Shown: positions 2,949-6,464 of the stretch, in pieces | Layout: each line of letters begins with the position of its first letter | Position numbering within the stretch: the stretch's first letter is position 1 | NCBI GenBank assembly: GCA_035575515.1 | Contig: DATLXU010000136.1 | Span: forward strand, 14,850 to 78,849 | From: Blastocatellia bacterium | GTDB taxonomy: Bacteria; Acidobacteriota; Blastocatellia; UBA7656 | Length of the DNA: 64,000 nucleotides | Direction of reading: 5' to 3' | Position numbers and translations under genes: made by a program | The notes under the pieces: model-generated | Seen by the model: the letters and a program-made list of their open reading frames with translations, nothing else | What the model was told of the DNA's origin: nothing | Databases searched by the model: none

Positions 2949-5900
2949 TTAAACGTTGAAGTTAAGCCTGTCCATCTTCAAGTAGAGTCCCTTGCGCGAA
3001 AGGCCAAGCTCTTTTGCGGCGCGGGCGATATTGCCCGATGAGCGCCGCAGCGCATCCTGAATCATTCGCCGCTCAAGTTCCTCCATCGCTTCCGCAAGCG
3101 TCGTGCTCGCGGTCGGCGTTATGTGGAATGATCCGATATTAGTCGAGGTTGCCGGGACAGGTTCAAGCTCGTGACTGGCGTGCGCTATCTCCGGCGAAAG
3201 ATCGGCTGGCGTGATGATTGTGCCCGAATCCGAATAGGCGACGAGCCTGCGCACTTCGTTGCACAACTGGCGGACGTTGCCCGGCCAGTCATAAACCACC
3301 ATCAAATCGAGCGCCTCTTCGGAAATCTTTATCTCGCTTTTGGCCGATTCGTGCTGGTACTCGTTGAGGTAGTGATTGATGAGCGCGGGTATCTCTTCGC
3401 GCCGCTGGCGAAGCGGCGGGACCTGGATTCTGATTACGTTGAGACGATGAAAGAGGTCTTCGCGGAATTTGCCTTCGGCCACTGCGCGCTCGAGATTAGA
3501 ATTAGTTGCGGCCACGACCCGAACGTCAACGCGAAGCGGCTGACTCTCGCCTATGGGATGAATCTCTCCTTCCTGCAAGAACCGCAGCAGTTTGGGCTGC
3601 AATTCAATCGGCAGGTCGCCTATCTCATCGAGAAAGAGCGTGCCGCGCTCGGCTGCCCGAATTATACCGGGATTATCGGCTACGGCCCCCGTGAACGCGC
3701 CCTTTCGATAGCCGAACAACTGGCTCTCAATCATGTCGCGCGGCGCGGCTGAACAATTGAAAGGCAAAAAAGTGTTAGCCCGCCGCGAGCTTCCTGCGTG
3801 GACCGCGCGGGCTATCAGCTCTTTGCCCGTGCCCGACTCACCTGTAATCAGCACCGTCACGTCTGAAGAGCGAATCTTGTGAATCTGCTCCAACACATGG
3901 CTCATGGCGCGGCTCGCGCAGATGAATCCGGGTATTTCAACTTGCGAGAGCAGTCGCGCCGGATCGAATACCTGCGTGCGGCGATGGCGACTCTTAAGCG
4001 CGCACAACTCCAGAGCTTGCGTCGCAAGCGATAGCAGCGGCTGAATGCTTACAGCGCCAGCCAGAAAACGCGAGGTGCGCGGCTCGATTATGCGCAGCAA
4101 ATATTTCGACTGGTGGTTGTCTGTCAGTTGATAAACGTGATGCTTGGCGCGCTCGCCTGGTTCAAGCCTCGATAGAAAATTCATCGCCGCCGCCTGCTCT
4201 GATTCATCCAATCCGACCGAGGCCACGAGCTTCAAATTGATCGGCCCTTTCGATACGTTGTCATCGTTGAGGACTTCGACGACTATTGCAGCGCGGCTGG
4301 CAGCCTGCTCGTTTGCAATTGCCGCAAGCTCATACAATAGAAGGTCGCTGGAGACGGCAGCCTGCGCGAGCCGCTGCGCCATAAAGCCGTCGAGCACGGA
4401 AGCAAGGTCGGGCGTCGCGCGCCGCGGCTCTGCATCAATCAGGCCATTCTCAGGCTGTTGTTTGCTTAACAATTCAAGGTAAGCGCGAGCCTTTTGCGCT
4501 TCAATTGCCGCGCCCAATCGCTCGAGCTCGGCCAGCGCCGATTCGACTTCAGAGATGGCTTCGCGCGTGCGACCCTGCCGCTGCATCAACTCTGCGAGCA
4601 CGATCCGGTTGATCGCCAGATCGAACGCGAAGTTCCTCATTCGAAAGACCGACGTGCTTTGACCGAGCGATTGGAAGGCGGAGGCGAGATGGCCGTCTGC
4701 CGCTTCGAGCTTTGCGACGGTCCGCATCAAAAGTCCCCATGCGGGCATATCAGGCATATCGCGAAGGAACTCGCGCGTTACCTCGACCTGCGCGCGGGCC
4801 GCTCCGATGTCTCCCGTTTGAAGCAGAGCTTCGGCCAGCCACAAACGCGTTTCACTGAGAAACTGTTTGTCGCCGAGCCTCACGCTTATGTCGAGCGCGC
4901 GGGAAAATTGCTTGATGGCTTCGTCGGGCTGGCCTTTTACGATATAAGTGCGGCCCACAGTCAGTCGCGTCTCTGCTTCGTTCGGGTGTTCCTTCCGGAG
5001 CGTTTCTTTTCTGTTCCTCAACTCATGGAATATTTGCAACGACTCTTCGAGCAGGCGATCAGCCTCGTCAAGCCTGCCCCGCAACAGACAGATCAGTGCG
5101 AGTGTATCGAGCGTTGCTGCGAGCGCGTGCATCATTGTCTCGCTTTCGCTCGCATCGGCCATGCGCAGTTCGGCTATCGCCTCTTTGACAAGCGACTCGG
5201 CCCGTTCCCATTGGCCCAGCCAGACAAGTCTCATGGCGAGATTGTTGTAGTTTACCGCCAGATAATAACTGTTGCCCGCCGCGCGGAAATGCTCTGCGGC
5301 TTTCTCGTGCGAGGCGATCACCTTCTCATAGGATGCGCCCACGTTTTCGTAGAGCATGCCCATATCGAGATAGGCTCGGCCCAACAGGTCATGCTCGTTG
5401 CGGTCGCCGACTATTGTTAGAGCCTGCTTGACTGAGTTGAGCGCGGTGCGAAAATCGCCCTCGCGCGCGTCAATGTTTCCGATGCAGAAGTAGCAGTCGG
5501 CGAGGTCGCGCCAGTTGCCGACCTTGCGAAAGTATTCAAGCGCGGAGGCGTAGTGGTCGCGCGCGATGCGAATTTCGGAGACGAACCTGTAAGTGCGCCC
5601 CAGCCCGAAGTGGCAGGCTCCGATGGCGCTCGCGTCGTCGAGCTTGCGGGCGATCTCCATTGCTTGATTGAACAATGCGATTGCGCGCGGCGTGTCGCTG
5701 CTGAGCGAATAGGCCCAGCCGAGACGGATGAGCACCGTCATTCGAGCTTTTTCCGAAAGTCGCGCAAGCTCAACGGGCTTCTCGTACTTCGCCAGTATTT
5801 CAAACTGCTCGTCAACGAGCCTACGCTTCTCAAGCGTTTCAGTGAGCCTGCAGCGTATGAAGGCTTCTTCGTCGTTCGAACGCGCTCCGGCTCGCAGCGC

Positions 5901-6011
5901 GGCGCGGAAGTGATTGGCCGCCTCTTCGAACCGGCCATCATCGAAGGCTTCGCGCCCGGCGGCCATTGCTTCATCTACTCTAGGGCTGGTTATAGTAAGT
6001 CTACTAGCCAT
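2949..6011 (-). CDS. sigma-54-dependent transcriptional activator (TPR repeats, GAF-like, AAA+ sigma54-interaction domain, Fis-type HTH)
   Basis: 1020-aa ORF. About 500 aa of TPR-like repeats are followed by a GAF-like segment. The AAA+ domain has Walker A GESGTGKE and the GAFTGA motif. A C-terminal HTH is present. Confidence 0.9.
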   Translation of the reverse strand: MASRLTITSPRVDEAMAAGREAFDDGRFEEAANHFRAALRAGARSNDEEAFIRCRLTETLEKRRLVDEQFEILAKYEKPVELARLSEKARMTVLIRLGWAYSLSSDTPRAIALFNQAMEIARKLDDASAIGACHFGLGRTYRFVSEIRIARDHYASALEYFRKVGNWRDLADCYFCIGNIDAREGDFRTALNSVKQALTIVGDRNEHDLLGRAYLDMGMLYENVGASYEKVIASHEKAAEHFRAAGNSYYLAVNYNNLAMRLVWLGQWERAESLVKEAIAELRMADASESETMMHALAATLDTLALICLLRGRLDEADRLLEESLQIFHELRNRKETLRKEHPNEAETRLTVGRTYIVKGQPDEAIKQFSRALDISVRLGDKQFLSETRLWLAEALLQTGDIGAARAQVEVTREFLRDMPDMPAWGLLMRTVAKLEAADGHLASAFQSLGQSTSVFRMRNFAFDLAINRIVLAELMQRQGRTREAISEVESALAELERLGAAIEAQKARAYLELLSKQQPENGLIDAEPRRATPDLASVLDGFMAQRLAQAAVSSDLLLYELAAIANEQAASRAAIVVEVLNDDNVSKGPINLKLVASVGLDESEQAAAMNFLSRLEPGERAKHHVYQLTDNHQSKYLLRIIEPRTSRFLAGAVSIQPLLSLATQALELCALKSRHRRTQVFDPARLLSQVEIPGFICASRAMSHVLEQIHKIRSSDVTVLITGESGTGKELIARAVHAGSSRRANTFLPFNCSAAPRDMIESQLFGYRKGAFTGAVADNPGIIRAAERGTLFLDEIGDLPIELQPKLLRFLQEGEIHPIGESQPLRVDVRVVAATNSNLERAVAEGKFREDLFHRLNVIRIQVPPLRQRREEIPALINHYLNEYQHESAKSEIKISEEALDLMVVYDWPGNVRQLCNEVRRLVAYSDSGTIITPADLSPEIAHASHELEPVPATSTNIGSFHITPTASTTLAEAMEELERRMIQDALRRSSGNIARAAKELGLSRKGLYLKMDRLNFNV

Positions 6012-6254
6012 GACAGGCCCATCGAACCGGGGCTATATTTTTTATGAATCTCAGGACAAGGCTCCCTTTGGCGCCGAATCAAATCCCACCTAAAGACGAA
6101 GGGATTCTATTGGCAGTTAATTACAAAGTCAAGCGTATCAATCTCCGCCATCGAAAGATCATCCGTAACGCATTAATACAAGCTGGAAAGATGAGCGCGA
6201 ACGCTTTTGCTCCAATCGCTGGATATACAGGTTAATAGCGGCACAGTTTGCGGC

Positions 6255-6270
6255 TGGCATATCTCTTGCA
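6255..6270 (+). promoter_or_regulatory. sigma-54 (-24/-12) promoter candidate
   Basis: TGGCAT-N5-TTGCA, with GG and GC 12 nt apart, lies 42 nt upstream of the ATG at 6312. An RBS GGAGGAG sits at 6296-6302. The site is divergent from the sigma-54 activator gene. Confidence 0.5.
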
Positions 6271-6311
6271 CTTTTCATTCGCGGATCATTTGGAATGGAG
6301 GAGAACGAACG

Positions 6312-6464
6312 ATGGGCATTTTTCAATTCTTGATATTTATCTTTTTCATACTCGTCTATGTCGGAATAGTAGGGATGCTAATAGCTCGCCTTATGGGGCG
6401 CAACGCGGCGCACCTTTTTCACAAAGGCGGCGAACGCAAGTCAGAGCTTCCGCTAAGAGGGTAA
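6312..6464 (+). CDS. small membrane protein (50 aa, single TM plus basic tail)
   Basis: Internal ATG of track ORF 6207..6464, preceded by a GGAGGAG RBS. Sequence is MGIFQFLIFIFFILVYVGIVGMLIARL... Confidence 0.45.
   Translation: MGIFQFLIFIFFILVYVGIVGMLIARLMGRNAAHLFHKGGERKSELPLRG

Follow-up and report, generated by a model that had tools for sequence, protein, structure and literature searches.

The 64,000-nucleotide stretch of DNA analyzed here, positions 14,850 to 78,849 of contig DATLXU010000136.1 from an uncultured Blastocatellia bacterium (hereafter the window), encodes a 1020-aa sigma-54 enhancer-binding protein (EBP) with a new input architecture. Divergent from its gene stands a sigma-54 promoter (P6255) that precedes a run of small-protein genes, here called the cassette. 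Comparison of related loci indicates that P6255 is a real promoter and belongs to the cassette, since its motif is found in all cassette loci and is missing where the cassette is missing. The likely enhancer of the EBP family lies elsewhere, in front of a second sigma-54 promoter and a tiny peptide gene. On balance we think it somewhat more probable that the EBP activates P6255 than that it does not. Features are listed in Table 1.

The P6255 motif, TGGCAT-N5-TTGCA, nearly equals the -24/-12 consensus of sigma-54, TGGCAC-N5-TTGC(A/T) (PMC12316311). It is the only exact match to TGGCAY-N5-TTGCW in the window, against 0.17 expected (17/100 shuffles); with one mismatch allowed there are four matches against five expected, which is chance level. 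By itself the motif is only suggestive, and it is conservation that makes it significant. A genome scan with an alignment of the N-terminal region of the EBP gave 42 loci. Sixteen of them, including the window, contain the cassette, and three more cassette loci were reached through homologues of its 108-aa protein p108, making 19. GGCA and TTGC are invariant in the intergenic alignment of the 16 loci, in which mean column identity is 53%, and GGCA-N7-TTGC lies 230-300 bp from the EBP start in each of them. The motif is present in 19/19 cassette loci, always 54-61 nt before the start codon of a small open reading frame (ORF). Neither cassette nor sigma-54 motif is found in about 17 orthologous loci in which the EBP abuts the methyltransferase gene.

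In the window, TGGCATatctcTTGCA is followed 3' by a ribosome-binding site (RBS), GGAGGAG, at 6297-6303 and an ATG at 6312, with which the run of small ORFs begins. The first-pass annotation of this DNA had described the same layout, with the motif pointing away from the EBP gene and followed by an RBS and the first ORF of a small-protein operon. The comparison bears this out. The match could alternatively be accidental, with the small ORFs read from an ordinary sigma-70 promoter; the expectation of 0.17 exact matches per window and the chance-level count at one mismatch speak for this. Such an accident is nevertheless extremely improbable, because both half-sites are invariant between flanks of only 53% identity, the distance to the start codon is fixed, the motif disappears together with the cassette, and a consensus scan of 6040-6312 found no sigma-70-like site facing the operon. 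No structured 5' leader was detected after the promoter (z-score 0.69), and positions 1-12000 contain no Rfam family.

Other near-matches to the -24/-12 motif, at 28683, 45587 and 46648, were rejected; one of them is intracoding, in another the -12 element is missing its GC, and the third precedes a nuoA-like gene. The minus-strand site at 28683-28698 (GGGCACtaccgTTGCT, one mismatch) is about 116 nt upstream of an ORF (28181-28567) that resembles nuoA by eye only, and may be a chance match. Two loci with no detectable p108 (L031 at 2306 and L033 at 5906) carry TGGTAT-N5-TTGCT together with AAGTCAAGTTCATCATTCGGAG, which resembles the conserved block 1 described below. In both loci these sites fall between the EBP and methyltransferase genes, which are 570-650 bp apart, and may represent a decayed or divergent cassette.

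Judged from its sequence, the protein encoded at 2949-6011 is a catalytically complete, bona fide bacterial EBP (bEBP). Pfam assigns Sigma54_activat to residues 697-863 (E 5.6e-67, full-length model match), AAA_lid_14 to residues 868-948, HTH_8 to residues 976-1015 (E 3.8e-14) and tetratricopeptide repeat (TPR) families to residues 14-499 (TPR_12, E 6e-31; TPR_MalT, E 1.3e-14); no receiver domain is among the matches. The GAFTGA motif lies at nt 3684-3701, the Walker A motif GESGTGKE at 3819-3842, and LFLDEIGD is present. The GAFTGA and Walker A/B motifs are invariant across 61 homologues. Foldseek matched the AAA+ domain to ZraR, NtrC1, NtrX, FleQ and LuxO (E 1e-16 to 1e-12). The NCBIfam models for NtrC, AtoC, NorR, NifA and others all match below threshold, through the AAA+-HTH (helix-turn-helix) part; no equivalog reaches its cut-off, the best being ntrC with 330 of the required 559 bits. 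The start M1 at 6011 is backed by the N-terminus MASR, which is kept in homologues. NCBI starts the protein at M16 (window 5966, 1005 aa), and the conserved upstream MASR favours 6011. The first-pass annotation was thus right about the size of the protein, its GAFTGA and Walker A motifs, the 5' end of its gene and the presence of some 500 aa of TPRs in place of a receiver.

Homologues of the N-terminal 690 aa form at least 191 clusters at 90% identity, of about 1010-1030 aa and about 50% identity, nearly all from metagenome-assembled genomes of Blastocatellia. A protein identical to the EBP was found on NCBI and Logan contigs. The family is widespread in soil Blastocatellia and annotated only generically in databases. 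The HTH segment of the EBP is nearly invariant among orthologues. The EBP is the only one encoded in the window.

The EBP family is likely, with good confidence, to bind palindromes of the form GTGTAGC-N-GCTACAC, which we regard as its putative sites on the strength of their placement in triplets, their co-variation with the protein between paralogues and the recovery of EBPs by a metagenome search. A -24/-12 scan of the loci found a second sigma-54 promoter on the strand of the EBP gene and downstream of it; its sequence is typically CGGCACG-N4-TTGCC, and tiny ORFs follow. The enhancer of this promoter consists of three copies of the palindrome (variants include GTGTAGCAGGTTCAC) at about -190, -170 and -105. 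At up to one mismatch the palindrome occurs only as a triplet beside the downstream sigma-54 promoter, in 17 loci and with zero background, and in several loci the triplet begins 50-100 bp past the EBP stop codon. Paralogous EBP loci (L028, L044) have a different palindrome, GTATACCTGCTAATCA, in the same place. The recognition helix of the L028 and L024 paralogues reads LTRRGLYMKM, against the nearly invariant LSRKGLYLKM of the orthologues (three residues), and the palindrome sequence co-varies with this helix between paralogues. The metagenome search gave mostly single chance matches, with true doublets or triplets in about 10 contigs among the matches listed; an EBP is encoded in three of these contigs, L077 and L113 (at least 5 kb upstream) and L087 (EBP 3' end directly before the sites). 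L028, L044 and L024 are second TPR-EBP copies in the same genomes as L010, L005 and L006, and in L028 and L044 the long palindrome GTATACCTGCTAATCA-GG-TGATTAGCAGGTATAC stands ahead of their own sigma-54 promoter.

In at least 13 loci, including that of this genome, the tiny ORFs behind the palindrome-bearing promoter encode peptides of 25-36 aa with the pattern GVI(L/F)DE(L/I)...(I/V/M)EEV(V/I)AP and a variable tail of 0-9 residues; their secretion and receptor binding are putative. In other orthologous or paralogous loci the tiny ORFs encode hexapeptide-repeat peptides, e.g., MNEGILLGDGILLGDGILLGDG.... The copy belonging to this genome was found on NCBI contig JBAIGS010000452.1 (locus L048), on which a window coordinate equals 15967 minus the L048 coordinate. 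Triplet, promoter and peptide gene (L048 17390-17898) lie 1.4-1.9 kb before window position 1 and 4.4 kb downstream of the EBP stop codon, and the gene of a major facilitator superfamily (MFS) transporter sits between the EBP and these elements. By reading, no sigma-54 promoter was found in the gap between the EBP and MFS genes (2713-2948), where relatives have one. A 48-aa hydrophobic ORF at 2709-2855 of the minus strand overlaps the MFS start by 4 nt, in the place where relatives have a repeat-peptide gene; it shows neither an RBS nor a repeat and is unlikely to be a gene.

Elements of another kind occupy the intergenic region 6012-6254. GATTCTAT-N17-AAAGTCAAG is kept in nearly all orthologous loci, with or without a cassette, and this conservation shows a sigma-70 promoter at 6104-6132 from which the EBP gene is predicted to be transcribed. 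Two conserved blocks fall about 100-150 bp upstream of the predicted transcription start site (TSS) of P6255, which is the usual place for an upstream activating sequence (UAS). Each cassette locus has a single copy of block 1 as AGCGTAYNAWTC (17 exact), and the rest of the 709 kb of loci has none; the window has one copy against 0.02 expected. Non-cassette loci diverge right after AAGTCAAG. Block 2 is semi-conserved in the intergenic and anchored alignments and varies between locus groups. The idea that the two blocks are copies of one motif was dropped (8.6 of 14 matches versus 8.3 in shuffles). Inverted and direct repeats within 5950-6330 were likewise rejected as a UAS, being short weak pairs only. 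The best inverted repeat (6077-6087 / 6101-6111; AATCAAATCCC / GGGATTCTATT) overlaps the -10 element of the sigma-70 promoter and covers the early leader of the EBP gene; its AATCCCC is kept across loci, and it may be an operator.

The proposal that the EBP controls the divergent operon therefore holds as far as the EBP, the promoter and their conserved divergence in 19 loci are concerned. It falls short in the enhancer, which is missing there in its canonical form and sits elsewhere; a check of 6012-6250 for inverted repeats of the upstream-activator type gave only weak pairs and no family palindrome. Several further observations weigh against activation of P6255 by the EBP. With a position weight matrix derived from 47 palindromes, true sites reach 18-32 bits; on 17 divergent intergenic regions the best match averages -12 bits, no better than shuffles, and the window contains no palindrome with two or fewer mismatches. 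At a distance of 3.4-7.7 kb from the divergent promoter, the palindromes would be remote for a bacterial enhancer. Blocks 1 and 2 show no significant similarity, and locus groups that share an essentially invariant HTH have different versions of block 2, which argues that the HTH of the EBP does not read this block. About 17 orthologous EBP loci have neither cassette nor promoter, so that the cassette is an accessory neighbour and not a universal EBP target. EBP and cassette may be adjacent through inherited synteny, which clearly accounts for the adjacency of a methyltransferase-flavoprotein-PDZ block. In one locus that the palindrome search turned up (L061), the 3.8 kb preceding the triplet encode no EBP, and the window contains no rpoN gene.

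These points would fit a P6255 that is real but served by another activator, encoded elsewhere and reading blocks 1 and 2, with the TPR-EBP controlling the peptide promoter only. The cassette would then stay beside the EBP by inherited synteny, or its products (the transmembrane peptide or p108) would act on the TPR domain of the EBP, as PspA/B/C act on PspF. Taken together, these variants are a credible possibility, though we judge them less probable than not. They agree with the lack of the palindrome from 17/17 divergent regions scored and from the window, with blocks that are cassette-specific, at UAS distance and unlike the palindrome, with a block 2 that varies under a constant HTH, with the many EBP orthologues that have no cassette, and with the persistence of methyltransferase-flavoprotein-PDZ synteny where there is no sigma-54 promoter. 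They agree poorly with the finding that the cassette adjoins a TPR-EBP in 19/19 cassette loci examined, even where other neighbours have changed (L022, L025, L030 and L041, which are without the methyltransferase-flavoprotein-PDZ block), and no second EBP is encoded in the 64-kb window. Moreover, the divergent EBP is usually the cognate activator in sigma-54 systems. It is this high prior for divergent EBP-promoter pairs, discounted for the missing UAS, that leads us to rank activation by the EBP first.

In the reading that we favour, the window contains half of a small, local regulon under sigma-54. The TPR and orphan domains would hold the AAA+ ring off until a ligand, a peptide or a partner protein binds, and the freed hexamer would then remodel the sigma-54 holoenzyme. 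The triple palindrome would serve as the high-affinity enhancer of the EBP, before the second sigma-54 promoter and the 'EEVIAP' peptide gene. P6255 is predicted to drive the 50-aa peptide, p108, p89 and the SemiSWEET-like protein, and probably reads on into two methyltransferases and the flavoprotein. Since the cassette is always its neighbour, the EBP would on balance be expected to fire P6255 as well; with the canonical palindrome missing there, it would have to do so through non-canonical sites (6133-6143, 6163-6182) or from a distance.

The signal would enter through a 13-repeat TPR superhelix and a lineage-specific alpha/beta domain, which together make up the input part of the EBP. In an AlphaFold2 model (61 sequences, mean pLDDT 78.6), 26 helices over residues 10-518 are followed by a disordered linker and a confident alpha/beta unit at residues 541-678 (order a-a-b-b-a-b-b-a-a, pLDDT ~85-90). 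Whole-chain fold searches, which are dominated by the AAA+ and TPR regions, give MalT domain III and the RRNPP peptide receptors as the nearest folds for the TPR region, with scores of 25.9 for a phage Rap protein with peptide, 22.2 for NprR-NprX, 21.2 for AimR and 20.5 for PlcR-PapR; RapH is also among the matches. TPR proteins in general score high against each other, so the likeness to MalT and RRNPP proteins is suggestive only.

The alpha/beta unit had been described as GAF-like. For residues 505-690, Pfam gives no family match at a threshold as loose as E<=10, and 0/20 EBP homologues match GAF at E<=1. When PDB sequences were searched with a profile of the segment, no GAF structure came up. 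An exhaustive search with this profile over 1.84 billion representative proteins returned 29 clusters only, all of them members of the EBP family (with the segment at about residues 520-700 of ~1000-aa proteins) or fragments. We therefore dropped the GAF identity; the label is unsupported by sequence, and the segment is best called an orphan domain. A domain search of residues 1-700 thus confirms TPRs and no GAF, and of the suggested protein or ligand input through a TPR/GAF sensor only the TPR part survives, with its fold like those of MalT III and Rap/NprR/AimR/PlcR. A TPR-GAF pair sensing a small molecule, as NorR, NifA and FhlA do through GAF, is accordingly very unlikely. Within residues 541-678 the predicted order a-b-b-a-b-b-a would loosely fit a reduced sandwich of the GAF or PAS type, and the top TPR fold match, MalT domain III, binds maltotriose; yet GAF matches appear at no threshold in the protein or its 20 homologues, the segment profile finds no GAF structure, and the exhaustive profile search stays within the EBP family although GAF domains are very abundant.

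The EBP shares with NtrC-family bEBPs (NtrC1, ZraR, NtrX, FleQ, DmpR, NorR, NifA) the AAA+ domain with Walker A/B, GAFTGA and lid, the C-terminal Fis-type HTH, and an enhancer in which several dyad sites precede a -24/-12 promoter by 100-190 bp. It differs from them in its input, which is a TPR superhelix of ~510 aa plus an orphan domain and not REC, GAF, PAS, V4R or FHA. No relevant paper was found in the literature on TPR-input bEBPs or Blastocatellia sigma-54. In E. coli the gene of PspF is likewise divergent from a sigma-54 operon, pspABCDE, that opens with small membrane-associated proteins, and there too the sigma-70 promoter of the EBP shares the intergenic region with conserved elements beside its -35. 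In our loci these elements suggest autoregulation. PspF lacks an N-terminal sensor, PspA controls it in trans, and its UAS lies in the shared intergenic region; the recognizable UAS of the TPR-EBP family, in contrast, is not there, and the 50-, 108- and 89-aa cassette products have no Pfam or NCBIfam match to the PspA/IM30, PspB or PspC families. MalT combines a STAND NTPase with a LuxR-type HTH and acts at sigma-70 promoters, whereas the EBP has a sigma-54 AAA+ domain and a Fis-type HTH. The N-terminal XRE-type HTH or phosphatase output of the RRNPP receptors (Rap, NprR, PlcR, AimR) is likewise not seen in the EBP, which has AAA+ and a C-terminal HTH_8. The arrangement is like that of pspF-pspA and the sensor like MalT III or RRNPP proteins, but the EBP fails the defining features of each.

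Table 1. Features of the window and of the matching NCBI contig (L048, JBAIGS010000452.1, own coordinates)
Feature	Position	Strand	Basis or remark
MFS transporter, conserved neighbour downstream of EBP	1444..2712	-	Pfam MFS_1 E 9.6e-40
Gene for 1020-aa sigma-54 EBP (TPR, orphan domain, AAA+, HTH)	2949..6011	-	ORF and Pfam/NCBIfam
Fis-type HTH_8 DNA-binding domain	2967..3086	-	Pfam; HTH segment including recognition helix reads GNIARAAKELGLSRKGLYLKMDRL
AAA+ sigma-54 interaction domain plus lid	3168..3923	-	Pfam, motifs, Foldseek
Orphan alpha/beta domain, aa 538-690	3942..4400	-	profile search, AlphaFold2; formerly 'GAF-like' segment
TPR superhelix, aa 10-518 (26 helices)	4458..5984	-	Pfam, AlphaFold2
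Predicted sigma-70-type promoter of EBP gene, TTGACT, 17 nt, TAGAAT	6104..6132	-	consensus scan 10/12
Conserved block 1, GCGTATCAATC	6133..6143	+	abuts EBP -35; ~-148 to -138 from predicted TSS; cassette loci only
Conserved block 2, CCGTAACGCATTAATACAAG, GTA-N9-TAC dyad	6163..6182	+	~-118 to -99 from predicted TSS
Sigma-54 promoter P6255, TGGCAT-N5-TTGCA	6255..6270	+	GG 6256-6257, GC 6268-6269; TSS predicted near 6280-6282
50-aa predicted single-pass membrane peptide (MGIFQF..., hydrophobic stretch, ARLMGR...)	6312..6464	+	conserved 37-55-aa ORF with RBS
p108, orphan 108-aa all-beta protein	6469..6795	+	ORF
p89, basic, variable cassette member	6867..7136	+	ORF; homologues in some loci only (L003, L011, L015)
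81-aa PQ-loop / SemiSWEET-like membrane protein	7158..7403	+	Pfam PQ-loop 23.9 bits, cut-off 22
UbiG-like methyltransferase	7400..8164	+	family match
PRK06202-type methyltransferase	8161..8874	+	family match
Geranylgeranyl-reductase-family flavoprotein	8975..10138	+	family match
L048: EBP	10001-13018		from M16 as NCBI calls
L048: MFS transporter	13255-14523		
L048: MacB/FtsX permease	14714-17332		
L048: palindromes (putative EBP sites)	17390, 17409, 17477		
L048: second sigma-54 promoter, CGGCACGCACGTTGCT	17580		
L048: 25-aa ORF MICSGAIYSEGVILTEIGIEEVIAP ('EEVIAP' peptide)	17821		strong RBS

The cassette consists of the small transmembrane peptide and p108, usually with the SemiSWEET-like protein, and stands between the EBP and the methyltransferase gene (16 loci). 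Every cassette locus has the first ORF, of 37-55 aa, with a conserved RBS and a start that reads MGIIQF or MAMARF. In the window its 50-aa product, called as a gene by NCBI and Logan, is a single hydrophobic helix with a basic tail, judging by its amino acids. Homologues of p108 form 99 clusters, none of them named or with a domain, and a distant p108-like clade is encoded where neither an EBP nor a sigma-54 promoter is nearby. p89 looks by eye like a coiled coil. The 81-aa protein is 63-79% identical across cassette loci and scores 22 bits against NCBIfam SemiSWEET_2 (cut-off 80), its SemiSWEET scores being far below the cut-offs. The 50-, 108- and 89-aa proteins match no family in Pfam, NCBIfam or PADLOC, and no cassette product matches a defence-system model. 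As a working guess, the cassette may be a membrane-associated output or may modulate the EBP much as PspA/B/C do PspF.

At 7400/7403 and 8161/8164 the start codon of one gene overlaps the stop codon of the gene before it, and the genes at 7400-10138 are probably the distal part of the same transcription unit. In cassette-less loci the second methyltransferase, flavoprotein and PDZ protein directly adjoin the EBP with no sigma-54 promoter, which makes the sigma-54 dependence of 7400-10138 uncertain. The PRK06202-type methyltransferase, the flavoprotein and a two-PDZ protein (window 8161-11338) are syntenic with the EBP in most Blastocatellia loci. The methyltransferase-flavoprotein pair resembles tailoring genes of the kind usually found with type III polyketide synthases; none of these synthases is encoded next to it.

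MFS homologues lie downstream of the EBP in L025, L030, L032, L037, L041, L050, L077 and L113. Hexapeptide-repeat ORFs are found at L022 11645-11782, L025 11407-11550, L028 11236-11535 and L032 5223-5339, and also in L030 (~11380), L041 (~11397), L044 (~11366) and L024 (~11700-12020). Their repeat unit, (D/N)G(I/V/F)(L/M)L(G/S/A), occurs 5-7 times. They stand directly downstream of EBP orthologues or paralogues, after sigma-54 promoters where a promoter was detected, and several precede an MFS gene. The repeat peptides (DGxLLx)n match no curated family and have only weak Hexapep similarity. Right after the EEVxAP genes, a protein of 840-920 aa, conserved at its N-terminus (CLYPPRVAEEVDVTEQ...RYVVRN...) and with a HlyD membrane-fusion domain at its C-terminus, is encoded in many loci, among them L015 (14871-17384), L035 (11974-14733), L029, L043, L038 and L013, which suggests peptide export. 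L022 encodes a second, shorter TPR-EBP downstream of its peptide genes (12204-14099; 631 aa with TPR, Sigma54_activat and HTH_8). Within the window, a 766-aa S8 subtilase (45926-48226, plus strand) has GFLLAD about eight times in its C-terminal region (47765-47854), a repeat that links it to the small repeat peptides beside the EBP family in other genomes. The ORFs upstream of it (44185-44793 and 44790-45386) resemble, by eye only, an anti-sigma factor and extracytoplasmic function (ECF) sigma factor pair.

A bolder reading, which we consider unlikely, is that the TPR-EBP is a cytoplasmic receptor for peptide signals, a Gram-negative counterpart of RRNPP quorum sensing with a sigma-54 output. 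Bound to the triple palindrome, the EBP would drive the tiny 'EEVxAP' gene or, in relatives, the (DGILLx)n hexapeptide-repeat gene. The product would be exported by the neighbouring MFS, MacB-type or HlyD-type proteins, and it or a fragment of it would be sensed by the MalT/Rap-like TPR domain, closing an autoinduction loop. The divergent operon of small transmembrane peptide, p108 and SemiSWEET-like protein would be an output or a component of this circuit, serving for example in import or modulation.

Because the recognizable enhancer of the EBP sits elsewhere, these loci also serve as a caution: a near-consensus -24/-12 motif that points away from an EBP gene does not on its own prove that the two form a regulatory pair. 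Sigma-54 activators are classed by their input domain, and no characterized example with TPR input was found. The EBP family of Blastocatellia offers testable cis-elements in its co-varying triple palindrome, its two kinds of sigma-54 promoter and its tiny conserved peptide genes. If the peptide link were true, it would extend cytoplasmic TPR-peptide signalling beyond the Firmicutes and couple it to sigma-54.

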